40,170 nt of DNA. It comes from a virus. Positions 13,955 to 33,426 of this stretch are shown in pieces; the first letter of the stretch is position 1; each line of letters begins with the position of its first letter. The translations under genes were made by a program, and so were the position numbers. The stretch spans positions 1 through 40,170 of the IMG/VR virus record IMGVR_UViG_3300045988_166694. One strand, given 5' to 3'. The notes under the pieces are model-generated. The model made no database searches, was not told the DNA's origin, and worked only from the letters and a program-made list of their open reading frames with translations.

Positions 13955-13955
13955 T

Positions 13956-15785
13956 CTATTGCCCCAGCATGTTATAGATTGACTGTATCTTAAGTCTAGC
14001 TTTCACCGGATTATCGGCGATATCGGGCACCATTGACATGTATGACTTGATATCCATATCAGACAGTGTGCCGCTATCGCCACTGGCTCTAGCCAAGGCT
14101 ACGGCTAAAGCTTGACGCTGAGAGTTGTATGCTCCTGCCGCCGGGTTGACGCTGTCAGCGGTAATGGCATTGAGGGCATTAGTTAAGTGCCCACCTACAC
14201 CATGACCGCCACCGGCTTGTCGGTACAGTTTCATCAAGCTACTCATCTGAGTGCGGGCAGAGTTCTGCTTAGCTGCCGTTTTCGCATCAGCGGCACTGCT
14301 TTTGGCGGTTGAGGCTTTAGTGGCGGCTTTAGTTCTGCTATCCAGTAAATCGATAATACTAGCTATTGACTTACCCGCTTTGGTATTACCATCCATCAGT
14401 GCCTTGACATAAGCGTTCTCCAAGTCTTCTCTAGAATAGCCAGCAATGGTGTCATTGCTCGCTGAATTAGCAGCAGCTAACCCGTTAGATACATCTCTTG
14501 GGCTACCGGCAACGCCGCCCATAGCCGAGCCCATTCCGTCAGCTTCTGAGCCACCGCCGGGCATACTACTACCTCTAGCCTGTCTACCGCCCAACTGGTC
14601 ACCCAGCATGGATAGTGCTCCAATACCACCCGCTGCGACTGCGCCTCGCTTGATAGCCTTCTGTACGCCCTCATCTCTAAGCTTATCGGCAGCACCTACT
14701 AAGGTTGACCCAAGCTTGCCTGTCGCCGCTTGAGCCGGCGTACCGACTAAGGTGTCCAGTAAATTAGTCAAGCCCTTAGGCATACCACCCATACCACGAC
14801 CACCACCTGAGTTGCCCAGTAAAGCACCACCGCCCTGAGCCTGGTCAGATAATCGCTCCAGCTTCTCACCGTTGACAAAGTCACGCTTAAATGAGCGCAA
14901 GTTAGCAATAGTCCTCTCTGCTGCCGGGGTGGCTTCCAGTTCCTGAGCCAGCTTATCGTAAGCTTTCATGAAAGGTGTATTGTTCTGTAACCTAGCCTCA
15001 CCAGCCAGTCTTTTGAGCTCATTGATAGAGTTCTCGTACAGTTCTTGAGTAGCACCCGGTCTAACCTGTTCTACGGCGTTATCAATACCTGTAGCAATCT
15101 TGTCGCCCATGTCCATCATCAATCCGCCCAAGGTCTTATCACCAGCCTTGTTAGCTGTATACATCAGCCTGCTACCCTCACTCTTGAGTAACTTCTCCAT
15201 CTGTACAGGGGTGTAATGGTCAATTAGCGGTCGTAAGTTAGACGGAAAACTGTTCAATACCGCTTCGTATTCACGGGTAGGTAAGTCAAAATGAGTCATA
15301 TCCAGTACATCAGTAGCCGACCTGGTGCTATTGATTGCTTTGTCCAAAATAGCATCTTCAGTACCAGTCAATGTCCGTCCCAGCTCTGCCTGAGCCCCCG
15401 GGTCTGAGATACCTGTCCGTCTGAATACTTCAGCAATGTTGTGCTTAGCGTCCGGGGCAACTTTAGCCATACCGGCTCTTGTAACGCTTCTGCCCGTGTT
15501 CATTGCCGTCTCGCCGCTCTTCTCCAGTAAATCAGCCACTGAGTTCAGAAAACCGCCTTTTTTGACTACGCTCTGAGCAGTATCATCAGCTATCTCACGC
15601 CCCAGATTAGATAAGGCACTCTTGCCTAAGCCCCTAGAGGCACTGGCTACTGCGACATTAGCTAAATCGTCGCCATAGTTTCTAGCTAGGCTACTTGCTA
15701 ACCCCCTAGAGGCACTATTAGCAACGCCTCGGGCAATATCATCGCCTGAGCTTCTGAACAATTTACTTAAAATACTGCCAAACAT
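13956..15785 (-). CDS. Large Ala/Gly-rich virion protein (609 aa) with the shared N-terminal 'MFGSILSKLFRSSGDDIA' motif. Internal or ejection protein candidate.
   Basis: N-terminal homology to the 12197..13954 and 4287 products. Low-complexity Gly/Ala/Ser-rich core. Position in the structural operon. Confidence 0.55.
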   Translation of the reverse strand: MFGSILSKLFRSSGDDIARGVANSASRGLASSLARNYGDDLANVAVASASRGLGKSALSNLGREIADDTAQSVVKKGGFLNSVADLLEKSGETAMNTGRSVTRAGMAKVAPDAKHNIAEVFRRTGISDPGAQAELGRTLTGTEDAILDKAINSTRSATDVLDMTHFDLPTREYEAVLNSFPSNLRPLIDHYTPVQMEKLLKSEGSRLMYTANKAGDKTLGGLMMDMGDKIATGIDNAVEQVRPGATQELYENSINELKRLAGEARLQNNTPFMKAYDKLAQELEATPAAERTIANLRSFKRDFVNGEKLERLSDQAQGGGALLGNSGGGRGMGGMPKGLTNLLDTLVGTPAQAATGKLGSTLVGAADKLRDEGVQKAIKRGAVAAGGIGALSMLGDQLGGRQARGSSMPGGGSEADGMGSAMGGVAGSPRDVSNGLAAANSASNDTIAGYSREDLENAYVKALMDGNTKAGKSIASIIDLLDSRTKAATKASTAKSSAADAKTAAKQNSARTQMSSLMKLYRQAGGGHGVGGHLTNALNAITADSVNPAAGAYNSQRQALAVALARASGDSGTLSDMDIKSYMSMVPDIADNPVKARLKIQSIYNMLGQ

Positions 15786-16639
15786 TAGTAGTAGCCTCCT
15801 CCATATTCATCTTCATCATCTTGGTACTGGTCTTGATACTGGTTCTGTCCGCCACCGCCAAATAACGGCAATAATTTACTGCCACCATATAAAGCACCGC
15901 CACCTAAAGCTACCTTGCCCATAGTAGACTTGGGCAGATACTTACGCCAATCAGTGCCTGTTAGCTTATTTTTTAGACTGCCAAACTTTTCAAATCCGAT
16001 AGGCATAGCTGCGCCCATTACTGCGCCCATAGGTGCGCCACTTAAGGCGTCACTGAGCTTAGTGTTTTGACCACCTTCACGATAGGCACCAGCTACGCTA
16101 CTCGCTGCACCCGAGAGGGCGTTTCTAACCAGTGCGCCTCTGCTAATCTTGCCTGCTGAAGTTAAGGCTTTGACGCCTGATGCCCCAGGTATGATGTTCA
16201 TGAGGCTCTCGACACCAGCTCCAATATCTGAGACGGGGTCACGATTGTTCTGCTTGTAGGTATTGCCCATCAAATCGACCGCCGCTGTACCAGCCTGATA
16301 CATCGGATTGATGATACCGCCGATTATCCCGTTACCAAGAGGCTTGTATCGCCAGTCTTTCTCCTCTTGCTCATAAGCCTTGCCCAGCGTATCCAATCCG
16401 CTCTTGTTTTGGCTTCGGGCAGTGTTGTAAGAGTTCATGATAGCTGAACGTCTAGCCTGCTCATCGGGGCTAAGACTGCCCCAATCGACGCCCTCGATAT
16501 TTTTAGCGTAATAGTCATTAGCTTGCTGGTTCAAAGCATTAGCTTGGTCTATCTGCTTATTGACCGTATCACGGTCATATTGCCGACCTGTACCAAAAAG
16601 TAACTTGCCTAAATTACCCAAGATATCCATGTCTACCAA
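15785..16639 (-). CDS. Gly-rich virion protein (284 aa) that ends in 'YGGGYY'.
   Basis: ATGA start/stop overlap with the flanking genes. Gly-rich composition. Confidence 0.5.
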   Translation of the reverse strand: MVDMDILGNLGKLLFGTGRQYDRDTVNKQIDQANALNQQANDYYAKNIEGVDWGSLSPDEQARRSAIMNSYNTARSQNKSGLDTLGKAYEQEEKDWRYKPLGNGIIGGIINPMYQAGTAAVDLMGNTYKQNNRDPVSDIGAGVESLMNIIPGASGVKALTSAGKISRGALVRNALSGAASSVAGAYREGGQNTKLSDALSGAPMGAVMGAAMPIGFEKFGSLKNKLTGTDWRKYLPKSTMGKVALGGGALYGGSKLLPLFGGGGQNQYQDQYQDDEDEYGGGYY

Positions 16640-17568
16640 TCTCCTCCACCGTTACCATAGCTGCGCTCTGTCGGCCAGCGGTCTTCTATACCCTTATTAG
16701 CCCAAAACGTACCACCGCCAAGTGCCGCTAGCGGTCCATACATCTTAATGGCATCCCAAAGATTATTAGCCTTGGTAGCATAAATCGGCTCTTGACGCTT
16801 TCTCGGGGTGTAGGTGTTATTGTTACCAGGTTTATCAGTGTTGCTTCTACTAGGCTGACGCTGAGGCAGGTAACTACCTATCCTCGCCGCTTCTATCTGG
16901 GCATCATGGGCTAACTTAGCGCGGTAGTTCTCCTGTTGCGCTTTCCACCTGTCTAACGCCATCTGGTCTTGTGCTAACTGATACTTATCTCTAGCACCAT
17001 ACTCATTAGCCAGCAAGCCTCTATCCTGCTGGTTCATCTGGTAGGCAGAATTACGCTGACCAAGCAGGGTTGACCAGACGCTACGCAAAGCATCCAAGGT
17101 CTTCTCCTGGTCGCTCATCTGGTTACCAGCCACATACTGCGTCTCCTGCGTACCTCGATTAGCTAAATCAGTGTAATCTTGCAAAGTGTTGTTGTAGTTC
17201 TGACTGAGCATGTTCATAGTGTTGGCGTTATCGCCCTGTCTAGACTGCATAATCCGTGATAGCTGAGCCTGAGTTAGGTTGCCACCGTACTGTTGCCTAA
17301 TGGTATCTGGCATGCGGTTGATAGTATCGTTAAGCTGGTCTACTGCGCCTCTGGCTTGCTGATAACTAGTCCTGGCTTTGTTTATCTCATCAGTGTTGAG
17401 ATACCTATCTCTGGCTGCGTTATATATGTCACCAAAGCTCTGACGCTTATCAAAAGCGTTGTTGTACTTGCCATACGCCTCATCTGCCTGCTGTTGGTAG
17501 GCGTTGTATTTCTGATAACTAGCGTCTGCGTTTCGGTTAGCTGATGCAATACGTCCACTAAAATCCAT
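16633..17568 (-). CDS. Gln-rich coiled-coil virion protein (311 aa), paralogue of the 17611..18438 product.
   Basis: Shared 'Q(R/Q)(F/Y)GGNLT(E/Q)..L' segment and shared N-terminal Y/Q-rich heptads. Confidence 0.55.
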   Translation of the reverse strand: MDFSGRIASANRNADASYQKYNAYQQQADEAYGKYNNAFDKRQSFGDIYNAARDRYLNTDEINKARTSYQQARGAVDQLNDTINRMPDTIRQQYGGNLTQAQLSRIMQSRQGDNANTMNMLSQNYNNTLQDYTDLANRGTQETQYVAGNQMSDQEKTLDALRSVWSTLLGQRNSAYQMNQQDRGLLANEYGARDKYQLAQDQMALDRWKAQQENYRAKLAHDAQIEAARIGSYLPQRQPSRSNTDKPGNNNTYTPRKRQEPIYATKANNLWDAIKMYGPLAALGGGTFWANKGIEDRWPTERSYGNGGGDW

Positions 17569-17610
17569 CTAAACTCCTATTCTTAGGATTATCGTAACAC
17601 AGTAGCCTCG

Positions 17611-18438
17611 TTAATATGCCCCCGCATAAGCACCACCTTCGTATCTTCTGAAGTATTCAGCTAGCGATAGCTCACCAGATTGTGTCTTAGCAATATCTGA
17701 ACGCTTGCGGGCAGTAGCTAAGTCAGCGTTACGCTGCCGTTCGGCACTAGCTCTCGCCAGGCTGAGTTCTGTATTTATCTGGTTTTGATAACGCTTAGTC
17801 CTATTAGCCTCTATCTCTCGCTCCTGAGCCATCCAGCGTTGTCTAATATTCCACCAATCATAGGCACTCTGAACCGACTGTTGCTGATATCTCGCTTGAG
17901 TAGCCATATTCGACCACTGCTCCTCGTTCTTGACTGCTGTATTCCAGTCATCAGCTCGCCTCTTGATACCTGACCAGTAGCTATCGCTCTGCTTGTTAGT
18001 TAGCCCTAACGCCTGATTGAAAGCTTTCTCGACCCTAGAATGATAATCGTTGAACTTGGTCTGGTAGCTAGCCTCATACTGCTTAAATTGGCTGGTGAGG
18101 GCTTCTTCTTGAGGTTCTTTGACCCGCTCCAGTTCTTCTTCGGTAAGGTTGCCACCAAAACGTTGAACAATAGTAGTACTGAGCCTATCTAGCTGGTCTT
18201 TAACTACCGCCAGTGCCTCCTTAGACTTGTCTAGAGTAGTTTTAACGCCTGATACGTCTAAGTCTTTCTCTGATTGACGCTTGTACTGGTCATATATTGT
18301 CTGGTAGTCGGGACGTTGGTCAAAAGCAATATCGTAAGCCTGCTTGGCTTGCTTGGTCTGCTCTTGCGCGGCACCGTATGCACCGTAAGTCTGGTCTACA
18401 TATTGTTGGGCTTCTTGTAGACGTCTTTGCCAATCCAT
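17611..18438 (-). CDS. Gln-rich coiled-coil virion protein (275 aa), paralogue of the 16633..17568 product.
   Basis: Paralogy to 16633..17568 as described for that gene. Confidence 0.55.
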   Translation of the reverse strand: MDWQRRLQEAQQYVDQTYGAYGAAQEQTKQAKQAYDIAFDQRPDYQTIYDQYKRQSEKDLDVSGVKTTLDKSKEALAVVKDQLDRLSTTIVQRFGGNLTEEELERVKEPQEEALTSQFKQYEASYQTKFNDYHSRVEKAFNQALGLTNKQSDSYWSGIKRRADDWNTAVKNEEQWSNMATQARYQQQSVQSAYDWWNIRQRWMAQEREIEANRTKRYQNQINTELSLARASAERQRNADLATARKRSDIAKTQSGELSLAEYFRRYEGGAYAGAY

Positions 18439-18445
18439 AGTCTTA

Positions 18446-19831
18446 TTATAAATGGTAAGGGGTGATTAGTGTGGTGATATCAAAAGTTATGCCAGTTAGC
18501 CACCACCAGCTCCACCATTGTGAGGTAAACCACCATTGACCGCCACTAGCTCGGTTGCCCCACGCCCACGCCACGATAGAGTAGATATCGATATCACCAT
18601 TATCTCTTGGCTCGATAGAAAAACCACAATGAATACTCGGGTCAGTCATCATCAACATGGTCGGCTGTGAGCCGTTAATATAGCCCCTGGTCGGATAATT
18701 GCCACTTGGTGAAAATGCCCAGACAAATAATTCATTAGTAGCACCGGCTGATATCACGTTTTCTGTAATATTGAAGTTAGAGTAGGCAAAGATAGCATCG
18801 GTGCTGTTAGCTGGAAAATACACGTCAAAGTTGCCATCACCGTCATACTGCCACCAAGCCTCATGAATGGTTGACCTGAGATTGCCGCTACCAATCTCGC
18901 TATGAGCTAGGTTGATTATCCTAAGCTGTCCAGCTGGTATGCCAGTCCTGATAGTGTGAACATGTTTTTTGTACATGCCATGACCTGACCTATAGACGTT
19001 ATCCCAAGTAAATGGATTAGGTGTAACTGGTGGTTCTGGGGCGTCACCTAGTACGGTAAACTTGTACGTTCTAATCTGAGGTGTTTTACGTGAAATATCC
19101 GCCCCGATTAGCTTGTAGGCACTGTTCAGATAGACAACGTTATCATCATAGGGTGATAGTACCTTTAAGCCATAATCAGCTCTTGGCACGATACCGCCAT
19201 CTTTAGGTGGTAGTTCGCTTGACCCCTCGGCATCATCCTCATAGTAAGGCTTACCCTTACCTGAATACTGCACTTTGTAGGTTTTACTCACTAAATCAAA
19301 GAGGCAATCACTCGGGGCGGGTGTGGTGCTGTATTCAGTGCTACCTTGCTTAACTGGTACTACGTGCAACCGTTCAGCACCAGTCTCGTCTCGTAAGATA
19401 ACCTCACCCACGTCCATTAGTGGTGCTCGTTTTTCAATCTCCCCGCCAGTATTGACTGAACCGATAAAGACTGACCGGCTAGGGTTGATAATCGTGCTAT
19501 TGAGTTCTACTCGCCGTCCATTGATTGAGCCATAGCTAGGCTCGATATGTAGACGATAAATCGGGCTACTATCATAAGGGATATCAAATATGTCGGGATA
19601 ATCCAAAGCTACTCTCTTACTGCCATAATACATATAAAACTTGTTGTCCATAATTTCACAGCCAAACTGGTCTGGTGTTGTATAAGTAGCTCTACTACCA
19701 CACAGCCAGCCATTACCCGGATAACGGTCTTTAGTCCTAAATACACCGTCAACAGTCCAGCCGTGCTGAACAATGACGTTGCTATCGATTGACTGGGTAT
19801 CGCCGACACCGCCCAGTCTAAGCCACCTCAT
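18446..19831 (-). CDS. Virion or tail protein (461 aa) with a Trp-rich C-terminal tail 'SGGQWWFTSQWWSWWWLTGITF'.
   Basis: Position in the structural operon. Unusual aromatic C-terminus. Confidence 0.5.
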   Translation of the reverse strand: MRWLRLGGVGDTQSIDSNVIVQHGWTVDGVFRTKDRYPGNGWLCGSRATYTTPDQFGCEIMDNKFYMYYGSKRVALDYPDIFDIPYDSSPIYRLHIEPSYGSINGRRVELNSTIINPSRSVFIGSVNTGGEIEKRAPLMDVGEVILRDETGAERLHVVPVKQGSTEYSTTPAPSDCLFDLVSKTYKVQYSGKGKPYYEDDAEGSSELPPKDGGIVPRADYGLKVLSPYDDNVVYLNSAYKLIGADISRKTPQIRTYKFTVLGDAPEPPVTPNPFTWDNVYRSGHGMYKKHVHTIRTGIPAGQLRIINLAHSEIGSGNLRSTIHEAWWQYDGDGNFDVYFPANSTDAIFAYSNFNITENVISAGATNELFVWAFSPSGNYPTRGYINGSQPTMLMMTDPSIHCGFSIEPRDNGDIDIYSIVAWAWGNRASGGQWWFTSQWWSWWWLTGITFDITTLITPYHL

Positions 19832-20727
19832 GGATTGACCACCAATCTAGTCACCTCACTAGCTACCATCGGCTGCCTCACTACTACCAGGCTGCTCTTG
19901 GGATAGACTAAATGCCCATCGATATTGAACCCTTTGACCCCGTTTAAGGTATAGGCTCGATAGCCTCCTGCGTCCTGATAAGATACACCAGCGTTATGCC
20001 ATAACCCTTGGCTATCTTGGATAAAAGAGTAGGCTGCCACCTGGTTATAATCCATACCACCAGGCAGTGGATAGAAGCTACTCTCTTTCTTGTCAAAGGT
20101 CGCCACCTTGACCGCTAGCACTAGCTGGCTCTGCACCATAGCGTTCAAGCCTAGCTTATCCGGGTCTGTCTCTTTAGGATTATCGCTGAGGATATGTTTT
20201 AAGCCATAATCGTACGTCTCACCCCAATCAGTGGTATCGGGGGTATCAAAATAGGGGTATTCAATGTCATGACTGATATCTACAGCGATAAGCAAAGCTC
20301 TATCTTTGAGCGTCTGAGCTCTATGCTCGTTATATATGTTTAAGTCGTAAGCGGTAATCTCTTGATATATCCAGCTCTCATCCCACCAAAAACCTCTGTA
20401 CGTCTCACCGAATGAGGCTGGTTTATCTGTAGTGATTAGCATCGGTGGATAGCCTAGATTATGTAGTAGCTTAGCCCTGTACTTGTAGACAGTTCTCATC
20501 TCACCGCTACGTATATTATATTCAGTAGTAGCACCATCTTGTAGTACCTGCCAGGGGCTATTCTGGTCAATGGTAGTTATCCATTGCAAACAAGGAAAAG
20601 ATGAGCAATACAGCAAGTTCACATCTGAAGCTGTTCTGGCGTCATAGCCTTTCTTAGCTATTTTGATGCCGTAATCCTGCCTAGGTCGCATCGTTGACGG
20701 CATCGGCTTTGGTTCAAGAATTAGCAC
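19828..20727 (-). CDS. Tail or structural protein (299 aa).
   Basis: Operon position only. Confidence 0.45.
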   Translation of the reverse strand: MLILEPKPMPSTMRPRQDYGIKIAKKGYDARTASDVNLLYCSSFPCLQWITTIDQNSPWQVLQDGATTEYNIRSGEMRTVYKYRAKLLHNLGYPPMLITTDKPASFGETYRGFWWDESWIYQEITAYDLNIYNEHRAQTLKDRALLIAVDISHDIEYPYFDTPDTTDWGETYDYGLKHILSDNPKETDPDKLGLNAMVQSQLVLAVKVATFDKKESSFYPLPGGMDYNQVAAYSFIQDSQGLWHNAGVSYQDAGGYRAYTLNGVKGFNIDGHLVYPKSSLVVVRQPMVASEVTRLVVNP

Positions 20728-20987
20728 TAGAAAGCTCCTGGTGAATAGCCCATCAGCACGACTACTCTGCCCTTGTTGTCCTTAACTTGATAGAGACCCT
20801 GCACCACCTGAGTACCTCTAGTGACACCTGTCCTAGTCTGGCGTGGTGCTATCTGGGTCTGCTGAGCAATATCCAACTCACTGACATTGCCAATCTCCTC
20901 AAAGGTAGCCTTAAGCTCGGTTGGTTTAGTCTGAGAATAGCTGGTTACTAAATCGTTAGTGTTCTGATTATATACAGGTTCTGCCAT
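20727..20987 (-). CDS. Small structural protein (86 aa).
   Basis: ATGA overlap with neighbouring genes on both sides, which suggests translational coupling. Confidence 0.4.
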   Translation of the reverse strand: MAEPVYNQNTNDLVTSYSQTKPTELKATFEEIGNVSELDIAQQTQIAPRQTRTGVTRGTQVVQGLYQVKDNKGRVVVLMGYSPGAF

Positions 20988-23002
20988 TATTTATGCATCT
21001 TGCCCTCCTCGGGCAAGCTCCTTATGTTAATACCGATTGACGTTATTCTGGCAGGCTTGGTAGCACCGTCATTTATGCCCTCTAAACCAAATTGTAGCAC
21101 CTTAAATCGCTTGTTCACTTCAAAATACAGCTCTGTACTGCCTGGCTTAGCTTTGCCCTCGCTGAATACCCAATTACCGCCATTTATCTTGTACTTTAGC
21201 CTAATCGTGCACCCCTGAGGCAACGGGTCAAAGGTAGCCACCATCCTGAGTAGTTCTTTAGCTTTCCAAGGGTAGCCACCATCATACTCCAAGCTCTCAT
21301 ACTTAAACTTCTTAGCTGGCTTTGATGAGTTATTGACTACAGTTATATACCAGGTATCAGAGTTGTTGACGTTGTCGTGAACTCGATTAGAGATGTAAAG
21401 GTTTTCGCCAAAGTTCCAAATACCGCCGACTTCAAAGCTATACTTATCCGTATTACAGTTGTCGGGCAAACCGGGTAAAGCGTATGAATAATAGTAGCTG
21501 TTCGGATAGTTCTTGTCTAATGAGCCATAGCTGTAAACGCCAGCTCTGGTATTTAACGTTGTCTTGCCTGGATAGACCAGTAGCAATATCCCTTTGCGCA
21601 CCGTCATAGCATGGTCATAAACGACCGTCTGGTTATCTACACCTGAAAACTCACCCAAGTCACTGGTGAGCGTTCGTATCTTAGCGATAGCCTTTGAGCC
21701 GGTATAAGCATATAAGCCGTTGTCTATCACCATGTAGATGATGTTCTGATGAGAATAGAGGCTCTGAGGTGCGCCCTCTTCTAAATCCACTCTGAAGTTG
21801 ACGTTATCGGCCACGCAGTCCCAGAAGCATAGGCTACCTTGCTGAAAGTCTCTCGATTGACCCTTACCGACCCTTTCACAGCCCATCACAATATATTCAT
21901 CTGAACTGGTCAAGCTGGTTATCTCCATGCCGTCAACGGCACTGACACGGTTAGCTTGCATCACTTCGGGCGTCTCTGCCTCTGCCCCTGTCGGTAACCA
22001 CTGCATCAGATATCTGCCATTACCGACTAGCAATGTGCCGTCCTTGTAAGCCATTATCGGATGATAGCCACTGCTGGTGATATTTAACGCATTAGCATAA
22101 TATCTGAAGTGCAATCCATACATCTTGCCGCTCTCGTATGCATCGACTGTCCAGTCATTAGTATCAGCTACTAGATGAATATGATATTCTGTTCCACCTG
22201 TCTTATAGGTCACAATTTCAATCGGTTTTGAAAAGCTAAAATCAATCGTGCCATCGGGCTTAATATCGCTAACAGACGCCTTGGCTTTAGCTATCTCTTT
22301 ATTGGCGTTGTTATGTAAAATCAGCGTCATCTCACCTGATGCTGGATGAGACCTAACTCTAACCGCTATCTTAGCCATCGGTGAGACATCAGGTATGAAG
22401 ACACACTTGTCGTCGTCGCCTTCAGAGAGGGCTGTTTTGACCACTGTAGTACCAGCCCCGCCACTCTTAAATGACCACCTGTCCACGCCATTGCCCGTCA
22501 GATAGCCGGCAGGACTTCTGACTAGTATCTGAGCAACAGTGTTAGACGTGCTGTAATTCAAGCTATGAACTACTACTCTGCTTGAAAGGTTATCGCCAGT
22601 GACGTTGTCAAAACTGTACAGCCTGTTGTTAGCTGTAATATACAGCGTGTCGTTCATATTTTGATAGGCAATATCAGCTCGACTGACGCTATCTGTCCAA
22701 ACGTTAGCCATAACTGTTGCTATATTAGCTCTGTCCACTTTAATCAGCTTGCCGCGATCGGTTATCATCCATTTCATGCCATCGGCTGATTGTGTCATGC
22801 CTGTGACAAGACCTAGCTCAGTGGTCTTGCGGATAATATCAGCTTCAGCCAAAACAGTCATAGCACTAGGCTCTAATCTAGCGTCTAAGCACTCGCTATT
22901 AGCGTAAGCGTTCTTGATACCGACCTTCTTATCCGAGCCTTGCCCGCCGTAAAACGACGTCTGACAGATAACTAAATCTGTACTATCGTATCGGCTAGCC
23001 AT
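20987..23002 (-). CDS. Large tail protein (671 aa). Tailspike, tail-fibre or tail-knob candidate.
   Basis: Largest protein of the minus-strand operon. β-rich composition. Confidence 0.45.
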   Translation of the reverse strand: MASRYDSTDLVICQTSFYGGQGSDKKVGIKNAYANSECLDARLEPSAMTVLAEADIIRKTTELGLVTGMTQSADGMKWMITDRGKLIKVDRANIATVMANVWTDSVSRADIAYQNMNDTLYITANNRLYSFDNVTGDNLSSRVVVHSLNYSTSNTVAQILVRSPAGYLTGNGVDRWSFKSGGAGTTVVKTALSEGDDDKCVFIPDVSPMAKIAVRVRSHPASGEMTLILHNNANKEIAKAKASVSDIKPDGTIDFSFSKPIEIVTYKTGGTEYHIHLVADTNDWTVDAYESGKMYGLHFRYYANALNITSSGYHPIMAYKDGTLLVGNGRYLMQWLPTGAEAETPEVMQANRVSAVDGMEITSLTSSDEYIVMGCERVGKGQSRDFQQGSLCFWDCVADNVNFRVDLEEGAPQSLYSHQNIIYMVIDNGLYAYTGSKAIAKIRTLTSDLGEFSGVDNQTVVYDHAMTVRKGILLLVYPGKTTLNTRAGVYSYGSLDKNYPNSYYYSYALPGLPDNCNTDKYSFEVGGIWNFGENLYISNRVHDNVNNSDTWYITVVNNSSKPAKKFKYESLEYDGGYPWKAKELLRMVATFDPLPQGCTIRLKYKINGGNWVFSEGKAKPGSTELYFEVNKRFKVLQFGLEGINDGATKPARITSIGINIRSLPEEGKMHK

Positions 23003-23873
23003 TTAGCCTCCAAGGCGACACTCGTGGGTCATTGACAGGCAATCTTGGATATGGATTGATAACGCCATCTGACGTCTTCAAGCCATACGTTGTTCTGTAT
23101 CGCTCCACTAGCTCATCATAGAGTTGCTTATAGTAGCCTGCCGTCTGCAAGTCTTTGCGCATCAGATAAAACTGTTGACAGGCATAGTAAACGATGGCGT
23201 CGTGATATTCTTCAGGAATATCGACGCTCTGACCGATTGTAACAGTAGCGTTATCTGAGCTATCGCCCTCGTAATAGTTCTGTAATAACAGGTGAGTGTC
23301 GTCAAGCCGTCTGTCTATTTTAATCGCTCGCTCATCTGAAAATATCATATAGCAGTCGTCTACTACGTCAGATCTGAACTTGTCGCCACCCACAGCTTCA
23401 ACCGCATCGCTGTTAGTCTCTAGCTTGACTTTAATAGAATAGTCGTCGATATGTAGCCTAGTCGCTTTAGCCTCATAAATGACTTTTAATCCATCAGTAA
23501 CATTTACTGAACTCGGCGGCAACAGCTCAATCTGACGTGGTGTCTTGACAAAATAGTATGTCGGTTGTGAGGCTAAAGTTAGCCAGTTATGTTTAACCGC
23601 TAGATATTCGCTAGTACTTTTAATCTCAATCAGCTCATTATCCCTAGCCGTCACAGCTGTTATTCTCAAAACGTCATCGCTTAGCTGATATGCTGTCTGC
23701 TTAGCTATCAGATCGGTCGTCTTAGTCTTAGTCACAGGATATCGTCTAGCTAGAGAATTGACGAGCTGAGCGCCCGAACAGACATCTTTAGCTATCTTAA
23801 CCAGCTCATCTGAGCTGTCGTCTAAACCGCACAGCTGAGCGACTTCTGACTTCATCTGAGTAAACGTCTTCAT
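22995..23873 (-). CDS. First gene of the minus-strand late operon (292 aa). Head-tail adaptor or tail protein candidate. Probably translated from a leaderless mRNA.
   Basis: Its ATG lies 6 nt after the TATAAT of the inverted late-promoter copy. No Shine-Dalgarno sequence. Confidence 0.45.
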   Translation of the reverse strand: MKTFTQMKSEVAQLCGLDDSSDELVKIAKDVCSGAQLVNSLARRYPVTKTKTTDLIAKQTAYQLSDDVLRITAVTARDNELIEIKSTSEYLAVKHNWLTLASQPTYYFVKTPRQIELLPPSSVNVTDGLKVIYEAKATRLHIDDYSIKVKLETNSDAVEAVGGDKFRSDVVDDCYMIFSDERAIKIDRRLDDTHLLLQNYYEGDSSDNATVTIGQSVDIPEEYHDAIVYYACQQFYLMRKDLQTAGYYKQLYDELVERYRTTYGLKTSDGVINPYPRLPVNDPRVSPWRLNG

Positions 23874-23925
23874 ATCTCAATTATAACGTATTATCATGAC
23901 GTCAACCTGATGCTGTTATTACAAT
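23874..23925 (-). promoter_or_regulatory. Late promoter element, copy B: the same 31-mer as at 1-31 in inverted orientation, followed by TATAAT and a leaderless ATG.
   Basis: The reverse complement of about 23895-23925 equals bases 1-31 exactly. Confidence 0.6.
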
Positions 23926-23943
23926 GATGATCGTAGCTAAAAC

Positions 23944-24003
23944 GCTTGATTTTTAATAAGCACTTTGATACTATAATAGTGTCAAGTTAATAAGGAGGAC
24001 AAC
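23944..24003 (+). promoter_or_regulatory. Early promoter-leader cassette P1: TTGATT, 17 bp, TACTAT (TATAAT), then GTGTCAAG leader, AAGGAGGACAAC and the ATG.
   Basis: Aligns with three further cassettes at about 27755, 30110 and 33199. Confidence 0.6.
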
Positions 24004-24459
24004 ATGACAACTACAGTTAAAGATATCGCTTCTCAAGAGACATACGCCACGAACGTGACAGTTTCGTATTCAGCCGGCGAATTCGTTTTGCCAAGATGGT
24101 TCATCAACAAAAATCTTTCGCAGAGCCAAGCATACGCTGTCAGCGTTGAGGGCTGCGGGAAAGCAGTTAAAGAGACAGAGAAGGCTATTGACATCGAATT
24201 CACTACTGATTATGGAAAAGTATGGCTTTGGTGTCCGAAGTCAATTCTCAAAACAATCGATGAAGTTGCAGATGAGTTGATTGCGGCGACGAAAAAGTTC
24301 AATGATAAGATGAGCAAGCGTACCGAACTTATCGAGAAAATGAGAGCTTTGGGCGTCAAAGGCATTAGCAATCATCAGCGAACTGAGACAATTTTTAGTA
24401 AAGCTAAAAGCCAAGGCATCGACGTCTCTGATGTTGAAAAGTGGTATTTTAATAAATAA
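24004..24459 (+). CDS. First early protein (151 aa) of unknown function.
   Basis: Preceded by the canonical 'AAGGAGGACAACATG'. Confidence 0.55.
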   Translation: MTTTVKDIASQETYATNVTVSYSAGEFVLPRWFINKNLSQSQAYAVSVEGCGKAVKETEKAIDIEFTTDYGKVWLWCPKSILKTIDEVADELIAATKKFNDKMSKRTELIEKMRALGVKGISNHQRTETIFSKAKSQGIDVSDVEKWYFNK

Positions 24460-24473
24460 GAAAGGACAGAATT

Positions 24474-24614
24474 ATGAGAGCATCAGTTTACAGAAGATTA
24501 CAAGAACAGAGAATAATAGAACTGTCAAGGCTTGCGGTTTCAGCCGGTCTACTAGTGATTTTAAGCTTAATCTTCATCATATCTTTTGGATGTGCGCTAG
24601 CTAAGTTCAACTAG
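24474..24614 (+). CDS. Small hydrophobic peptide of about 46 aa, found by hand and absent from the ORF track (MRASVYRRLQEQRIIELSRLAVSAGLLVILSLIFIISFGCALAKFN).
   Basis: Ribosome-binding site 'AAAGGACAG' with 4-nt spacing. One transmembrane helix. Coordinates are approximate. Confidence 0.3.
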   Translation: MRASVYRRLQEQRIIELSRLAVSAGLLVILSLIFIISFGCALAKFN

Positions 24615-24900
24615 CCCCATCTAGTTTAGACGCCTCTTCTATAGTAGTAGCAGGGGCGTCTTCTTTTGGTATAAAGCCATAATCTTTGGCACTTTCAGGG
24701 TAATAATCGATGAAGTCTTGGTTGGGCGAGCCATCAGGATTGTGAGGCTGAATTAGCTCATGAGCGTGAGCTATAGCCTCATTGGTCAGTTGGTTGTCTT
24801 GACTAATGGTGCTTATGGTTGTATTAGATGAGTTAGATATAGACTGTCTGTCGTTTCGTTCAATCAGTCTATTATCTAGCGTTATTGTCCATCCAGCCAT
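24607..24900 (-). CDS. Hypothetical protein (97 aa), last gene of the minus-strand island. The start is uncertain because it overlaps the upstream gene by 29 nt.
   Basis: ORF track entry with coding-like composition. Confidence 0.35.
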   Translation of the reverse strand: MAGWTITLDNRLIERNDRQSISNSSNTTISTISQDNQLTNEAIAHAHELIQPHNPDGSPNQDFIDYYPESAKDYGFIPKEDAPATTIEEASKLDGAS

Positions 24901-25189
24901 AGCCCGCCCCCTTTTCTATTTCACGTGAATGTTCTGCTCTAATCTGAGCGGGTGTTTTAGTGCCAACCACGCCAGATACTTTTCTGAGAGGCAGCTGATT
25001 AGCACCCTTGAACGGATCGGTCACTTTGCCCGTTACGCCATAGCCTGGCACTAAAACTCTAATAGCTCTCTCGTTTAAGTCGTCTAACCGTTTAGTAGCA
25101 TTACGAATATCCATGTCGAGATAGTGAACTTTAACAGCTACTACTATCTGTAGTATGACAATAGCGATGAAGGATACAGCTTCTATCAT
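24872..25189 (-). CDS. Membrane-anchored protein (105 aa) with an N-terminal transmembrane helix 'VSFIAIVILQIVVAV'.
   Basis: Directly downstream of the GroEL homologue. Confidence 0.45.
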   Translation of the reverse strand: MIEAVSFIAIVILQIVVAVKVHYLDMDIRNATKRLDDLNERAIRVLVPGYGVTGKVTDPFKGANQLPLRKVSGVVGTKTPAQIRAEHSREIEKGAGYGWMDNNAR

Positions 25190-25191
25190 TT

Positions 25192-26646
25192 TTAGTCCAA
25201 GTCCTTTTCAAAAGGTAATGCTACTTTAATGCTGAGTAATTGCTTGACAGCACTGGCTGAATTAGCCACTGCTTCTTTAATGGCTAAAGCACTATCTAAA
25301 ACACCAGCTTCTCTCATGTCATTAATCTCATCTGTTGTCAGATCTAAGCCTTGTTTTGATTTAGTGCAACCATCTGAGGTGATCAGGCTGTAGATATCTT
25401 TCAAATAATTTAAGTTTTGAGAAGTGAGGGCGATATCTCTGAGTGCTGTGCCTGCGCCGTAAAGTGCGCCATGCTTTTTAGCTGAAAGAACTGCGCATAT
25501 ACCATCATCTATTCTTAGCTTAGCTTCATGTCGTTCAGCTAAAGTATTAGCCCCGACAGAGATTTTAACTGTTTTAGATTTTAGACGTTTTTGACGGTCT
25601 TCAGGTAACTTTTTGATATAGTTGTCAAGGTCTTGATTTAGCGAGCCATTTAGAACAGTTTCAGTGCTTGTGACTTGAGCATTTTCAACCGTGCCTAGAT
25701 ACTCCTCTGAGAATTGTTCAGGCGATAGAGTGAATGGTTTACAGTTAGAATATTTTGCGACGTCTTGCAAGAACTCGTCACGATTTTTGAAGGGCGGGGC
25801 AACAATCGAGACGTCAAGTTTTCCAGCTAACTTATTAGAGACAGTCGTTTCAAGTGCTTGACCCATGACGTCAGCAATGAGGATTATTCCTTGACCAGGC
25901 TTAAGCTTAATCGCTCGCTCAAGAATAGGAATGATATCGCTGTCAGTCTTGACAGTTTTGGGCAAAACTATTATCAGAGGATTATCATAATAGCTTTTGA
26001 AAGAAGTCAAGTCATTAGCTAATGCGATAGTTGTTAGTCCTTGGTTGAAAGCAAAACCCTCTACGATATCGACGTCGATCTGAGATAATTCTTGTTCGGA
26101 TACGGTGATAGCACCGCCGTCAGAATTAGTAACAGCTAAGTCGACAGCTTGAGCAAGTCGCTCGTCACCTGTCGCCGTCAAAGCGATGTTGTAGTAATCT
26201 TTATCCATCAGATCAGATGGTTTAATCGTAACTGTGTCAAGTCTCTTTAGAATATCGAAAGTGTCATAGTCAATCATGCTGTTTAGCTCACGTGGTGAGA
26301 TGTCTTTTGAAAGAGGTCGATAGTTATCATAAGTAAGTTTAGTTAAAACTACTGTTAAAGTAGTGCCGTCGCCAGCTTTCAGATCTGTTTTAGCACTAGC
26401 TTGACGAGCAATTGATATAGCTGCGTTCTCGATCGGATCAGCTACTTGTAAACTAGCTATGTTAGTAATTCCGTCGTGAGAGACGGTCGGTTCACCATAT
26501 CGATTTTCGATCAAGACATTCCCCGAGTTAGCTCCAAAAGCACAGATAGCCGTATCGTATATTTTAGTCAGACCACTCTTTATCTTAGACGTCAAGTCGT
26601 CGCCTGTTACTACATTTCGCACTAAATTAGTTTTTGGCATCGACAC
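25192..26646 (-). CDS. groEL: Phage-encoded GroEL-family (Hsp60) chaperonin, 484 aa.
   Basis: 'KAGDGTTLTVVL' matches the GroEL ATP-site motif 'AGDGTTTATVL'. 'GQGIILIADVMGQALETTV' matches 'KPLLIIAEDVEGEALATLV'. 'APPFKNRDEFLQD' matches 'KAPGFGDRRKAMLQD'. 'HGALYGAGTALRDIA' matches 'EGVVAGGGVALIRVA'. The protein is collinear with GroEL from the N-terminus to the C-terminus. Confidence 0.8.
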   Translation of the reverse strand: MSMPKTNLVRNVVTGDDLTSKIKSGLTKIYDTAICAFGANSGNVLIENRYGEPTVSHDGITNIASLQVADPIENAAISIARQASAKTDLKAGDGTTLTVVLTKLTYDNYRPLSKDISPRELNSMIDYDTFDILKRLDTVTIKPSDLMDKDYYNIALTATGDERLAQAVDLAVTNSDGGAITVSEQELSQIDVDIVEGFAFNQGLTTIALANDLTSFKSYYDNPLIIVLPKTVKTDSDIIPILERAIKLKPGQGIILIADVMGQALETTVSNKLAGKLDVSIVAPPFKNRDEFLQDVAKYSNCKPFTLSPEQFSEEYLGTVENAQVTSTETVLNGSLNQDLDNYIKKLPEDRQKRLKSKTVKISVGANTLAERHEAKLRIDDGICAVLSAKKHGALYGAGTALRDIALTSQNLNYLKDIYSLITSDGCTKSKQGLDLTTDEINDMREAGVLDSALAIKEAVANSASAVKQLLSIKVALPFEKDLD

Positions 26647-26651
26647 ACCTC

Positions 26652-26972
26652 CTAAATAAGCTTGTAGCCCATTATTTTATTATTCTGAATAAAGACGTAA
26701 CGCTTGTCGTTAATTACGATCGGCTCGCCTGATTGATAAGGCTGAAAATAAACTGTTGTGCCTTGCGGACGAGTAATAGCATCTTTGCCCGAACTTTTGA
26801 TAAGAATACCTTCTGTGATTTGCTCATACTTTTCACGAGAAAGCGTCAAGCCTGAGTCGCTGGTAGACAGCAGTTCCACTAAAGTATAGCCAGGCGTCGG
26901 TTCTAACAATTTGTCCCCCTTTTCAGTCATAATTACTACTGTTAGTTTACTAAAAATGACGCTATATTGCAA
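26652..26972 (-). CDS. groES: GroES-like co-chaperonin (106 aa).
   Basis: Size and position immediately upstream of the GroEL homologue. β-rich sequence with a Gly-containing loop region ('SDSGLTLSREKYEQITEGILIKSSG') comparable to the GroES mobile loop and core. Confidence 0.5.
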   Translation of the reverse strand: MQYSVIFSKLTVVIMTEKGDKLLEPTPGYTLVELLSTSDSGLTLSREKYEQITEGILIKSSGKDAITRPQGTTVYFQPYQSGEPIVINDKRYVFIQNNKIMGYKLI

Positions 26973-27001
26973 GCGTCATTTAGTTGATCGATGATAATCG
27001 G

Positions 27002-27508
27002 TTAGGCTATTTTGCCACCACCCGCTCGGATCCAGGTGTAATCACCGGCTTTAGCTTTGACTTCCATGACGCCGAGAGCTTCATTGCCCGTTGCACCCTT
27101 TACCACACCATTGAAAGCGTTGCTGTCAATAGAGACCGGGGTGTTAGCCGGCACGTCAAAGTCGAGAGCGTCAGCCAGGCTGATATAGCCATTGGTATTT
27201 ACTCCTTGAACCAGATATTGCACGTTAGCGATAGTTGCGATCGCATCTGTGAACACGACCACTTCATCAGCTGTAAAAGTCGCAGCTATTTTTATAGTCG
27301 ACATGCCCGCCGAAGCTGCCTCAGCGTTACCGCTTTTATTACTTTTTTGAACGATCACCTTGTCGCCGGGAACGACATTGCCGCCGATCCTGCTATAGCG
27401 ATAGACTCGACCGTCAGCCATGCGGGCGAACTTACCCAAAACCTCTTGCTGCACATCTGATACAGCGTGGATATCACTGTTATTCAATACATTTCGTACA
27501 TTTGCCAT
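27002..27508 (-). CDS. β-rich hypothetical protein (168 aa), first gene of the minus-strand island. It looks structural or decoration-like.
   Basis: Ribosome-binding site 'AAAGGAAG'. It is far more protein-like than the overlapping plus-strand ORF 26984..27460. Confidence 0.5.
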   Translation of the reverse strand: MANVRNVLNNSDIHAVSDVQQEVLGKFARMADGRVYRYSRIGGNVVPGDKVIVQKSNKSGNAEAASAGMSTIKIAATFTADEVVVFTDAIATIANVQYLVQGVNTNGYISLADALDFDVPANTPVSIDSNAFNGVVKGATGNEALGVMEVKAKAGDYTWIRAGGGKIA

Positions 27509-27559
27509 AAACTTCCTTTCGTTTATAAAACTATTCTAACAGAGAAAGTAGCTGATCGG

Positions 27560-27610
27560 CTGGTCGAGTTGTTTTTATATAGCAACACTGATTATTGTTT
27601 TGTCAATATA
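27560..27610 (-). promoter_or_regulatory. Putative σA-type promoter for the minus-strand island (ATTGACA ... TGCTATATA, read on the minus strand). A hairpin plus T-run lies just upstream.
   Basis: Read directly on the minus strand upstream of the ATG at 27508. Confidence 0.4.
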
Positions 27611-27754
27611 AAAAAGCACCAGCAACGAGATATGAAGCTTGAGGACAACATGACCGACGCTGGTGCTTATGTCATTATAGTAGCGCAGATCGCCCAGTAG
27701 GTCAATACGAGTTATCCACAGTTTATGTTTTTATTACATCGTTATTATAGTGCT

Positions 27755-27817
27755 TAAGTCTTGCTATTCTGAAAGTGCTTTGTTATTATAACAATGTCAT
27801 TAATAAAGGAGGACAAC
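27755..27817 (+). promoter_or_regulatory. Early promoter-leader cassette P2: TTGCTA, 17 bp, TATTAT, then AACAATGTCATT leader, AAGGAGGACAAC and the ATG.
   Basis: Member of the four-copy cassette family. Confidence 0.55.
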
Positions 27818-28453
27818 ATGACGGACAACGAAAAAACTAGTGTAGAAAACGACGTGATCGATTTTTACGCCAATCACCCTGAAGCGAAGGTGATCAATGC
27901 TTACGTTACCAAGCAAGAAGTTCTGAAGAAGAATGATATTGTGAGTAAGTTTTTAAGTAATTGCGAAAGTTACACAGAAGAAGACGAGCTGCTGAGCAGC
28001 ATATTTAATCAACTTAATCACGAGCGTATCGCTGTATCTGTTTGGCGTAAGCGAACAGGTTTTTCGATTGAAGGCAAAGCTATCGAGAAGATGATCGCTT
28101 ACCTAGTGGATGGCGAGTTGTCTATGAAAAGTGATGTTGACAATGTTATGAAAGAAGGCGTAAAAGAACTGCTGTCTGATAAGACTAGGCTTTCTTCAAT
28201 CTGTTGGTTGGCACTTTCAGATGTCAAAGAAACGCTTGGCGATGTGAAAAATAAGAAAGTATTTAACGAGTTTGTAAATAGCAGAGCGACTTATTGGCTA
28301 CTAAAAGGCTTCTTTGCGCTTGAACACGACGATACTGCCCCAACATCTGATCCGCAGGCTTTTCCGGAAGAGACGGTTGTCGATACTAGCTTGTTGCCGG
28401 CAGTAGCAGACTTTTTAGGCGAGAAAAGGAGGCTAGCTGAAGAGAATAAGTAA
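27818..28453 (+). CDS. Early protein (211 aa) of unknown function. The start is trimmed to the ATG that follows 'AAGGAGGACAAC'.
   Basis: The conserved ribosome-binding site and start context used by the other cassettes. Confidence 0.55.
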   Translation: MTDNEKTSVENDVIDFYANHPEAKVINAYVTKQEVLKKNDIVSKFLSNCESYTEEDELLSSIFNQLNHERIAVSVWRKRTGFSIEGKAIEKMIAYLVDGELSMKSDVDNVMKEGVKELLSDKTRLSSICWLALSDVKETLGDVKNKKVFNEFVNSRATYWLLKGFFALEHDDTAPTSDPQAFPEETVVDTSLLPAVADFLGEKRRLAEENK

Positions 28454-30062: not shown

Positions 30063-30109
30063 TTATCCACATTACGTTGTAAATAAAGTTATGATCGCAT
30101 AAACATACT

Positions 30110-30171
30110 GCTTGACTTTATCAAAGCACTATGAGATACTAATAATGTCAATAAGCGAAAAGGAGGACAAC
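30110..30171 (+). promoter_or_regulatory. Early promoter-leader cassette P3: TTGACT, 17 bp, GATACT, then AATAATGTCAA leader, AAGGAGGACAAC and the ATG.
   Basis: Member of the four-copy cassette family. Confidence 0.6.
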
Positions 30172-30414
30172 ATGAACGACGACAACGGTAATGAGATCGA
30201 GGGGCTAGCAGTAGCCTATGACGGCTGTCACAAGATTTATATCTGTGAGACTGAGGCGGATATCAAGAAGATGAAAGAGCTGCACTATCAGATCCACGAC
30301 ATGAACGAGTTGCAAGATATTTACAATAACTCTTGTAGTCTGAGGTTTATCAACAGCGCAGATCTGAAGAAGTGTTTTGTGACACAAAGATTGGATGACG
30401 ACGATGAGTACTAA
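30172..30414 (+). CDS. Small acidic protein (80 aa) directly upstream of recT. Possible host-nuclease inhibitor, by analogy with lambda Gam.
   Basis: The start is set at the ATG after the conserved ribosome-binding site. The functional suggestion rests on the Asp/Glu-rich composition and the position only. Confidence 0.45.
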   Translation: MNDDNGNEIEGLAVAYDGCHKIYICETEADIKKMKELHYQIHDMNELQDIYNNSCSLRFINSADLKKCFVTQRLDDDDEY

Positions 30415-33191: not shown

Positions 33192-33198
33192 TCATACA

Positions 33199-33255
33199 TA
33201 TTGACTTTCTATAAGCACTATGAGACAATAATAATGTCAAAGAAAGGAGGACAAC
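33199..33255 (+). promoter_or_regulatory. Early promoter-leader cassette P4: TTGACT, 17 bp, GACAAT, then AATAATGTCAAAG leader, AAGGAGGACAAC and the ATG.
   Basis: Member of the four-copy cassette family. Confidence 0.6.
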
Positions 33256-33426
33256 ATGAACGAAGCAAGCCAGCGTAAGTATCACTGGCGCAACGGTCGA
33301 GTGATAATTGAGCGAGAGATTATCGACGACCATCACGACAAGAGCATGGTGATCGGCTTAGGGATAGTACTTTTATTGTTCTTACAGCTGGCAATACACG
33401 CTTTTGGAGCATTACTCATAGGATAA
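33256..33426 (+). CDS. Small membrane protein of about 56 aa, found by hand and absent from the track (MNEASQRKYHWRNGRVIIEREIIDDHHDKSMVIGLGIVLLLFLQLAIHAFGALLIG).
   Basis: It uses the conserved 'AAGGAGGACAACATG' start of cassette P4 and has a C-terminal transmembrane helix. Coordinates are approximate. Confidence 0.5.
   Translation: MNEASQRKYHWRNGRVIIEREIIDDHHDKSMVIGLGIVLLLFLQLAIHAFGALLIG

Follow-up and report, generated by a model that had tools for sequence, protein, structure and literature searches.

Why would a phage of about 40 kb carry a GroES/GroEL pair of its own, and which proteins would that pair fold? The question is raised by the IMG/VR record IMGVR_UViG_3300045988_166694, whose 40,170 nucleotides (nt) we analysed at full length and refer to as the window, and in particular by a block of five minus-strand open reading frames (ORFs). 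Read along the minus strand, these encode p168 (27002-27508, 168 amino acids, aa), a GroES-like protein with similarity to Cpn10 (maximal ORF 26652-26972, 106 aa; 26652-26930 from an ATG), a GroEL-like protein (25192-26646; 484 aa from a GTG, 482 aa from the ATG at 26640), p105 (24872-25189, 105 aa) and p97 (24607-24900, 97 aa). All five had been called at exactly these coordinates in an earlier reading of the bare sequence, here termed the original prediction. We consider it probable that these genes form a conserved phage module built around a divergent Cpn10/GroES-like lid and a shortened GroEL, the latter plausibly a single ring; late phage proteins are our guess for its clients, and p168 would be a separate element.

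Homologues of all five ORFs were found at the same position in relatives, with 24-55% identity, and the ratios of nonsynonymous to synonymous substitution rates (dN/dS) against relatives with about 90% nucleotide identity lay between 0.03 and 0.27, indicating purifying selection (p168, 0.04-0.06; GroES-like, 0.07-0.13; GroEL-like, 0.04-0.05; p105, 0.03-0.05; p97, 0.11-0.27). Because of these same-position homologues and the strong purifying selection, we take the five ORFs as genuine genes and not as chance ORFs. Plus-strand ORFs lying antisense to them, such as 26984-27460, were rejected as spurious, given that conservation and dN/dS track the minus-strand frames. The genes groES, groEL, p105 and p97 are tightly packed, with small gaps or overlaps. 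The likely start of groES is the TTG at 26909 (85 aa), or else the ATG at 26930 (92 aa): the TTG is preceded by the Shine-Dalgarno sequence AAGGGGG, is the start used by the gene call in a 96% identical relative, and fits the N-termini of the family (M-x-L-x-P-x-P-G-Y). For groEL, the ATG at 26640 is the likely start (482 aa), as in P0001; its Shine-Dalgarno sequence AGGAGG overlaps the groES stop, and the gap between the two genes is 5 nt in the window.

The GroEL-like protein matched the Pfam family PF00118 (Cpn60_TCP1) with 94.8 bits against a gathering cutoff of 34.3 (E 6.3e-27) and phrog_5725, 'chaperonin groEL', at 2.4e-72 over residues 8-476, and a phmmer search of the PDB returned dozens of GroEL/Hsp60 chains at 1e-25 to 1e-40. 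The alignment of a 38-member family profile with a profile of cellular GroELs (hhalign probability 100%, E 2e-83, 482 columns) spans E. coli GroEL from residue 1 to about 528, that is, the full three-domain architecture in collinear order, which bears out what the original prediction had said of this protein. NCBIfam GroEL models (1e-49) far outscored those for CCT and the thermosome (1e-9 or worse), which places it in group I. The score against the GroEL equivalog TIGR02348 was 167 bits, far below the cutoff of 582, so it is not an ordinary bacterial GroEL. The AlphaFold (AF2) model is confident (predicted local distance difference test score, pLDDT, 88.5). On this evidence we classify the 482/484-aa protein as a full-length, divergent group I chaperonin. 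Its identity to cellular GroELs is 23-28% and at most 30%, and a recent capture from the host was rejected for that reason.

We mapped the residues of 55 family clusters onto E. coli GroEL. The positions D52, D87, T89, T90, D398, G414 and D495 are invariant in all 55 clusters, and G416 is kept in 54 of them. The window carries the motif KAGDGTT, so that the GDGTT named in the original prediction is in place and aligns with the ATP site; 53 of the 55 relatives have GD(S/A)TT at this point (window residue 94), and the clade of the window keeps the Gly. At position 91, nearly the whole family, the window among it, has Leu in place of Thr (T91L), and the window also has G415A. The apical residues that bind GroES and substrate are hydrophobic but aliphatic (Y199 to L/I, Y203 to A, F204 to L); L234, L237, L259 and V263 are kept or hydrophobic, and V264 is S/A.

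The signal of the GroES-like protein in the profile searches is weak but consistent. It matched PF00166 (Cpn10) with 23.0 bits in its 85-aa form and 22.1 bits as the 106-aa ORF, the gathering cutoff being 21.1, and a PHROG family annotated 'co-chaperonin GroES' at 5e-3; the NCBIfam scan gave no match. A family profile was built from 18 members with no cellular GroES included, and its five best matches in the PDB were all Cpn20, Cpn10 or GroES chains, aligned over the full length (E 4e-4 to 0.03). Aligned with E. coli GroES, the family shows the motif Y-x-S-G-L-(S/T)-x at the site of the mobile-loop residues G23-G24-I25-V26-L27. The window has S-G-L-T-L there: after the Gly, the first position is hydrophobic and the second polar, where E. 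coli has G24-I25-V26-L27. Polar residues at the second and third mobile-loop positions are common in viral GroES proteins (PMC5649160). The region of the roof hairpin varies across the family, and that of the window is shorter by about 6 aa. Finally, the gene lies directly upstream of groEL in all loci. We regard GroES homology of this 85-92-aa protein as well supported and very likely correct, and the protein would act as the lid. The GroES-sized co-chaperonin of the original prediction is thus backed by a Cpn10 profile match and by its place in front of groEL, and both the Cpn60 and the Cpn10 profiles, which had been proposed as a check, match their respective proteins.

An alternative would be that the GroEL-like protein works alone, as EL gp146, OBP gp246 and AR9 gp228 do, and that the 85-aa protein is a beta-barrel with another role. 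All characterised phage GroELs are independent of a co-chaperonin, and the Cpn10 score barely exceeds its threshold, with 12 of the 18 relatives failing Pfam individually and NCBIfam silent. Set against this are the five best PDB matches of the family profile, the glycine plus hydrophobic motif at the mobile-loop position, and the groES-groEL order found in every lineage. Moreover, bacterial GroELs match the window protein far better (1e-30 to 1e-40) than do the chaperonin chains of EL and OBP, which align with its N-terminal part only (8e-19 and 9e-10). With a GroES-like gene present and with sequence closer to bacterial GroELs, the window protein is not of the EL gp146 type, and we hold a solitary GroEL to be quite improbable.

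Is the ring single or double? Members of the family have 473-502 aa, compared with about 540 aa for GroEL, and the window protein is about 60 aa short. Three deletions are conserved, at E. coli positions ~352-366 (the K/L helical hairpin), 427-443 and 461-472; the C-terminal GGM repeat tail is missing, and the protein ends with ...ALPFEKDLD at about E. coli residue 528. The deletions at 427-443 and 461-472 remove E434/D435 and E461/S463/V464: E434, E461, S463 and V464 are missing from the window, as they are from 44-53 of the 55 members. In addition, a small segment of helix D with A108/A109 is absent in 43-44 of the 55 members, and K105 and R452 are not conserved in the family. The AF2 model shows one 14-residue helix (410-423) in place of the GroEL helices O, P and Q. 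In E. coli GroEL the salt bridges K105-D435 and E461-R452 stabilise the double ring, and substitutions at R452, E461, S463 and V464 yield a single-ring GroEL; mitochondrial Hsp60 (mtHsp60), which lacks both bridges, is mainly single-ring, and a single ring cycles only when GroES binding is weakened (PMC5575113). The polar second mobile-loop position of the family fits the weakened binding that a single ring would need. Based on the loss of the ring-ring contact segments and of the GGM tail, we see about an even chance that the family GroEL works as a single ring, in the manner of mitochondrial Hsp60/Hsp10 and not of the GroEL double ring.

The competing view is that of a conventional double-ring GroEL/GroES copy that boosts the folding capacity of a host with little of it to spare, in which the deletions are neutral trimming and the rings stack through other contacts. 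Such a copy would explain why all catalytic and hinge residues are kept and why a GroES partner is present, and the hosts of the family do have a GroEL of their own (a Saccharibacteria GroEL, P0106, was among the cellular matches). The E. coli contact residues are already altered in the nearest cellular GroELs (R452 is L/I, E461 is N), which tells against a single ring in the phage family; since these GroELs lack the residues as well, it is the deletion of segments alone, and not residue identity, that argues for a single ring. New ring-ring contacts could also have evolved. Yet the identity of 23-28% and the 167 bits against 582 exclude a recent host copy, and two helices' worth of the equatorial ring-ring face are missing family-wide. 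We therefore rate the double-ring copy as rather unlikely. A broader and more tentative proposal, which we would put below an even chance, is that these GroELs of about 480 aa are the smallest natural group I chaperonins, obligate single heptamers with a GroES-like lid of weakened loop, a counterpart of mitochondrial Hsp60/Hsp10 in phages of ultrasmall Saccharibacteria, possibly acting together with p105 and p97 (e.g. in membrane-tethered folding). In the literature searched, we found no report of these equatorial deletions in the viral GroELs of virioplankton or of Cellulophaga and Flavobacterium podoviruses.

We examined how widely the module is distributed. The protein search recovered about 55 clusters at 42-96% identity, many of them on contigs of 38-40 kb. 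The cassette was present in 45 of 45 IMG/VR loci, nearly all on contigs of 36-40 kb, and also on five contigs from GTDB metagenome-assembled genomes (MAGs), in a GenBank TM7 phage and on four further metagenome contigs. Every locus has the same gene order: a p168-like gene (~160-171 aa), GroES-like, GroEL, a gene of ~92-108 aa and a p97-like gene (~73-97 aa), often with one further gene of ~115 aa at the end of the cassette; in the L039/L049 clade the p168-like gene is replaced by an unrelated gene. The original prediction had called a complete pair in a 40-kb phage unusual. This is overstated, as the identical cassette is fixed across a whole family of ~36-40 kb phages and the Cpn60 of one relative has been annotated since 2017; the pair lies at the small end of the known range and is not of a new kind. 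Our literature search found no paper on the chaperonin of Saccharibacteria phages, and a paper on phages of Saccharibacteria in mBio (2023) makes no mention of chaperonins.

The block sits at a divergent junction between replication/recombination genes and structural genes, and does so in all relatives. It had been described as an island in the early region, a description that the relatives do not bear out: there the cassette is a module with the structural genes on one side and the divergent genes for recombination and replication on the other. The major capsid gene, 47-70% identical to window 11040-12131, is convergent with the cassette in most relatives and follows it at a distance of 1.5-2.5 kb. 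As to the host, the phage probably belongs to a family attributed to oral Saccharibacteria (TM7), because of the GenBank host field of the closest phage and the binning of a contig with a GroEL 94% identical to that of the window. That contig is one of two among the GTDB MAG contigs L052-L056 that were binned as Candidatus Saccharibacteria.

The second part of the question concerns what the pair does. The GroES-like protein (85-92 aa) would be translated just ahead of the shortened GroEL (482-484 aa), followed in the same tightly packed operon by p105, a putative membrane-anchored protein, and by p97. By homology, the GroEL-like subunits would assemble into a heptameric ring, which would bind non-native phage proteins through its aliphatic apical residues and take up ATP at the conserved equatorial site to run an ATP-driven cycle. 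A heptamer of the GroES-like protein would then cap the ring, its G-L-(S/T)-x mobile loop docking onto the H/I groove and enclosing the client. Our guess, by analogy with other phages, is that the clients would be late phage proteins small enough for the cage, the first candidate being the 363-aa (40-kDa) HK97-type major capsid protein and the second the 351-aa (38-kDa) endolysin (6778-7833). The capsid protein is a candidate because of the analogy with T4, lambda and HK97 and because of the gene neighbourhood in relatives, and the endolysin because EL, OBP and AR9 offer a parallel. At 725 aa, the portal would exceed the size that can be encapsulated.

A different reading of the function would make the endolysin or other non-structural phage proteins the main client, or would assign the pair a role outside folding (host takeover, counter-defence). 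The endolysin is the experimentally shown substrate of the EL, OBP and AR9 chaperonins, the 351-aa endolysin of the window would fit the cage, and the cassette has a host-type promoter beside early genes and lacks the 37-nt late-operon element. Classical genetics, on the other hand, ties GroEL/GroES and T4 gp31 to head assembly (PMC5649160), most relatives have the capsid gene next to the cassette, and for a role outside folding there is no positive evidence. We consider this alternative possible and on balance doubtful, and late phage proteins, with the capsid protein in front, stay our guess for the clients. The dedicated folding of capsid proteins and the escape from the host's chaperones, both put forward in the original prediction, are guesses as well.

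Several points count against the proposed lid-dependent module. The Cpn10 signal is weak (~23 bits): taken singly, only 6 of the 18 members pass Pfam. An altered or reduced ATPase is possible, given G415A and T91L in the window and GD(S/A)TT in most relatives. The proximity of the capsid gene may be mere genome layout, and the inversion of the late region in the clade of the window has done away with it there. The only phage GroELs whose clients are known act on the endolysin and need no co-chaperonin (PMC9598537). Three of the five MAG bins with family contigs are Atopobium/Atopobiaceae and not Saccharibacteria; phages of Saccharibacteria are reported to be co-targeted by CRISPR spacers of Actinobacteria (PMC10746230).

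The first gene of the block, p168, stands somewhat apart. It has a strong Shine-Dalgarno sequence (AAAGGAAG), and its AF2 model is all-beta (pLDDT 86.9). Its homologue in the TM7 phage matched phrog_26298, 'virion structural protein', at 1.3e-6. The wider p168 family comprises 1078 representatives, mostly of ~240 aa; ten of its members searched against Pfam and PHROG gave a single weak match, again to a 'virion structural protein'. The p168 profile found nothing meaningful in the PDB, and Foldseek searches with the model returned no PDB entry at E<=0.001 and only uncharacterised homologues in BFVD. The original prediction of a structural-looking protein is reasonable in view of the all-beta model and the homologue's virion match; p168 is probably a beta-barrel protein of the virion, either decorating it or associated with the particle.

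Between p168 and groES we found a terminator- or attenuator-like hairpin (26949..26984, minus strand), with a 10-bp core stem (AAATGACGCT/AGCGTCATTT) running into a T-run. A hairpin occupies this spacer in the window and in 14 other lineages (L001, L006, L013-L016, L018, L020, L024, L033, L038, L040, L044 and L045), that is, in 15 of 15 examined, with its position kept and its sequence not. The hairpins of the relatives are mostly GC-rich (folding free energy, dG, -16 to -25 kcal/mol) and mostly followed by a T-run, and for the minimum free energy of the spacer, eight relatives gave z-scores between -2.9 and -7.3 and the window one of -1.8. Since a terminator-like hairpin precedes groES in every lineage examined, p168 would form an at least partly separate unit, expressed more strongly than the chaperonin operon, and the co-transcription of the chaperonin genes with a structural protein that had been proposed becomes doubtful. 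The chaperonin operon would then be transcribed by read-through or from an unrecognised promoter, and p168 is not demonstrably part of the chaperonin machine.

Upstream of p168, the original prediction had placed a promoter at about 27560-27610. Its TTGACA (27606-27601, minus strand) is indeed invariant in 10 relatives, but the -10 element is poor and variable: at a spacing of 17-19 nt it reads GCTATA or TATATA, which is weak, and this promoter was absent from the output of the promoter scan. Better conservation is seen in another candidate, the extended -10 element TGnTAGAAT (TGTTAGAAT) on the minus strand at 27541-27533 (27533..27541), 25 nt upstream of the p168 start. It is kept as TGnTAnnAT in 10 of 10 close relatives, with the inner bases varying, which is evidence at the level of the consensus. 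A strict sigma70 search upstream of the p168 homologues of distant relatives found nothing that reached 10 of 12 matches. Because the chaperonin block has host-type promoter candidates and no 37-nt late-operon element, early or continuous expression would fit.

Next to this promoter region, the minus strand of 27612-27705 holds a candidate small antisense RNA, the RNA itself spanning 27612-27672, with a conserved promoter and a terminator of its own. The sigma70-like promoter TTGACC-N17-TACTAT (27705-27677) has both hexamers invariant in nine relatives, and the hairpin has an 11-bp stem (dG -23.4 kcal/mol, z -5.4) followed by a U-run. The loop GGUCAUGUUGUCCUC is the exact complement of GAGGACAACATGA(CC), the block of Shine-Dalgarno sequence and start codon of four plus-strand early genes (positions 23995, 27809, 30163 and 33247); five matches were found and 0.09 were expected. 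Relatives show one compensatory change from C-G to U-A, and further C-to-U changes under which G.U pairs are preserved in the minus-strand RNA only. The candidate RNA could shut off translation of the early genes. It may also be read as the decayed remains of a fifth early cassette, with an ORF of 16 aa. The anti-ribosome-binding-site hairpin had no Rfam match and no analogue in distant relatives, and no Rfam family matched anywhere in the window.

The genes behind groEL are also part of the conserved cassette. p105 begins 2 nt after the groEL stop. Its N-terminus is hydrophobic over ~20 aa, in agreement with the membrane anchor suggested earlier, and most of the aligned relatives share this segment, the L039/L049 clade being an exception; its conserved C-terminal motif is VTDPF..AN...PDQIR.E...IK.G..YG. 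p97 overlaps p105 by 29 nt, lies downstream of groEL in nearly all loci (29-55% identity) and carries the conserved motif HAH(D/E)LIQP.NPDG.PN.DFI.YYPE.AK.YG.I. Searches of both proteins against Pfam, PHROG and NCBIfam gave no informative family match, and their profiles found nothing meaningful in the PDB, the matches of p105 being designed coiled coils or transmembrane helices. Paralogy of the two was rejected (hhalign probability 6.7%). Because of their tight coupling to groEL, with the 2-nt gap and the 29-nt overlap, a role linked to groEL is suggested for both p105 and p97.

In the genome as a whole, the two ends of the window are an identical 55-nt direct repeat (1-55 and 40116-40170). 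This repeat is an assembly overlap, and with such ends the genome is circular or terminally redundant, with a true length of 40,115 bp. Plus-strand genes at 47-10994 include the large terminase, portal and endolysin; the minus-strand genes at 11040-23873 have an SU10-type adaptor (22995-23873) as their first product and the major capsid protein (11040-12131) as their last. A lone plus-strand ORF (24004-24459) behind an early-type cassette of promoter and ribosome-binding site precedes the chaperonin block (24607-27508, minus strand), and from 27794 onward follow plus-strand genes including RecT and a YqaJ exonuclease, as seen in the 96% identical relative. The early-type cassettes are present in four near-identical plus-strand copies (23938-24015, 27753-27829, 30104-30183 and 33193-33267), the first two of which are the flanking promoter cassettes P1 and P2 already recognised in the original prediction. 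Each comprises TTGACT-N17-GATACT-like hexamers, a conserved spacer AAGCACTATGA and then AAAGGAGGACAACATGA at the start codon, and the four copies point to as many early transcription units, each with a promoter of its own.

Both late operons have an inverted repeat of 32-37 nt (ATTGTAATAACAGCATCAGGTTGACGTCATGA) immediately before their first gene (1-37 and 23894-23930 in the window). In the relative L012 (~90% nucleotide identity) the whole 23.9-kb late region is inverted compared with the window, with breakpoints exactly within this repeat, and the metagenome that yielded L012 also contains several relatives with the gene order of the window; in L003, L007 and L008 the late region is oriented as in the window. 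Both isomers of the late region thus occur in nature, and the repeat may serve as a late promoter/operator or as a recombination site, or combine the two functions. Elsewhere, ORF 9801-10994 (397 aa) contains an exact 50-nt duplicate (10874-10923 and 10937-10986, 63-nt spacing) that gives a repeated 21-aa peptide near the C-terminus of the protein. Two adjacent minus-strand genes of 311 and 275 aa (16633-17568 and 17611-18438) match phrog_37153, of unknown function, at 7e-63 and 7e-43 and are tandem paralogues in the structural module. After the lone gene 24004-24459, a plus-strand ORF of 46 aa (24474-24614) with the hydrophobic core LAVSAGLLVILSLIFIISFGCALA converges on p97, sharing 8 nt with the end of that gene at its stop, and a gene of similar size is called in the 96% identical relative. 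A blastn search of 24000-28000 against 50,697 phage records gave no match.

Chaperonins encoded by phages reveal those steps of virion production for which the host cannot be trusted. Here, phages of ~39 kb attributed to ultrasmall, genome-reduced oral bacteria devote ~4-5% of their genome to a GroES/GroEL pair, and because of this cost and of its presence in every member found, the pair is probably essential for the lifestyle of the family. If the chaperonin proves to be a natural single ring that depends on its lid, it would offer a compact model of a minimal group I folding cycle and a useful contrast to the lid-independent chaperonins of jumbo phages. For annotation, the family becomes recognisable as carrying a complete pair, the GroES-like gene being labelled 'hypothetical' in GenBank at present.

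The closest GenBank genome is that of the TM7 phage DolZOral124_53_65 (MG269973.1), a circular genome of 38.8 kb with the host field 'candidate division TM7', in which a 'chaperonin Cpn60/TCP-1 family protein' has been annotated since 2017. The gene order of its cassette is that of the window, with products of 164 aa (the p168 homologue), 100 aa (GroES-like), 480 aa (GroEL), 103 aa and 79 aa, and it resembles the window in genome size and in the site beside divergent early genes; its GroEL is 43% and its capsid protein 65% identical. It belongs to another clade, with ~53% GC, its GroES-like and other cassette genes are annotated as hypothetical, and its capsid gene is adjacent and convergent, whereas that of the window is 12 kb away.

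Beyond this family, viral operons of the orders GroES-GroEL and GroEL-GroES are common in virioplankton (Marine et al. 2017, PMC5649160), and 133 of the 337 GroEL contigs of one dataset carried GroES, with podovirus-like neighbours (PMC5649160). We also found GroEL and GroES annotated in 60-kb Flavobacterium podoviruses (Elemovirus genomes), and GroEL alone in one 43-kb siphovirus genome. The operons of virioplankton and of Cellulophaga and Flavobacterium podoviruses are likewise of group I with their own co-chaperonin, on mid-sized podovirus-like genomes and with polar mobile loops; their GroELs differ in having ~490-520 aa and ~25% identity to that of the window, and in their hosts and habitats. 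The statement that phage GroELs are known mainly from jumbo phages thus holds for the biochemically studied ones only. These proteins, EL gp146, OBP gp246 and AR9 gp228, act without a co-chaperonin and fold the endolysin (PMC9598537). They are GroEL homologues too, those of OBP and AR9 being single-ring heptamers, but they come from phages of >200 kb, have 515-558 aa and are more distant in sequence.

Among lid-dependent systems, mitochondrial Hsp60/Hsp10 and the engineered SR1 are of group I, depend on a Cpn10 lid, lack the inter-ring salt bridges of GroEL and are largely single-ring; they serve as our model of the cycle that the phage pair may run. In mtHsp60 the contact residues are substituted, in the phage family they are deleted; there is no phylogenetic link between the two, and the single ring of the phage protein is a prediction from its sequence. 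E. coli GroEL/GroES has the same domain order, ATP-site residues and groES-groEL order, and differs from the phage protein, which has ~25% identity to it, is ~60 aa shorter and has no GGM tail and aliphatic apical residues. T4, finally, supplies the lid only (gp31) and uses the GroEL of its host; what it would share with the window is the historical role of such systems, the folding of phage head proteins.

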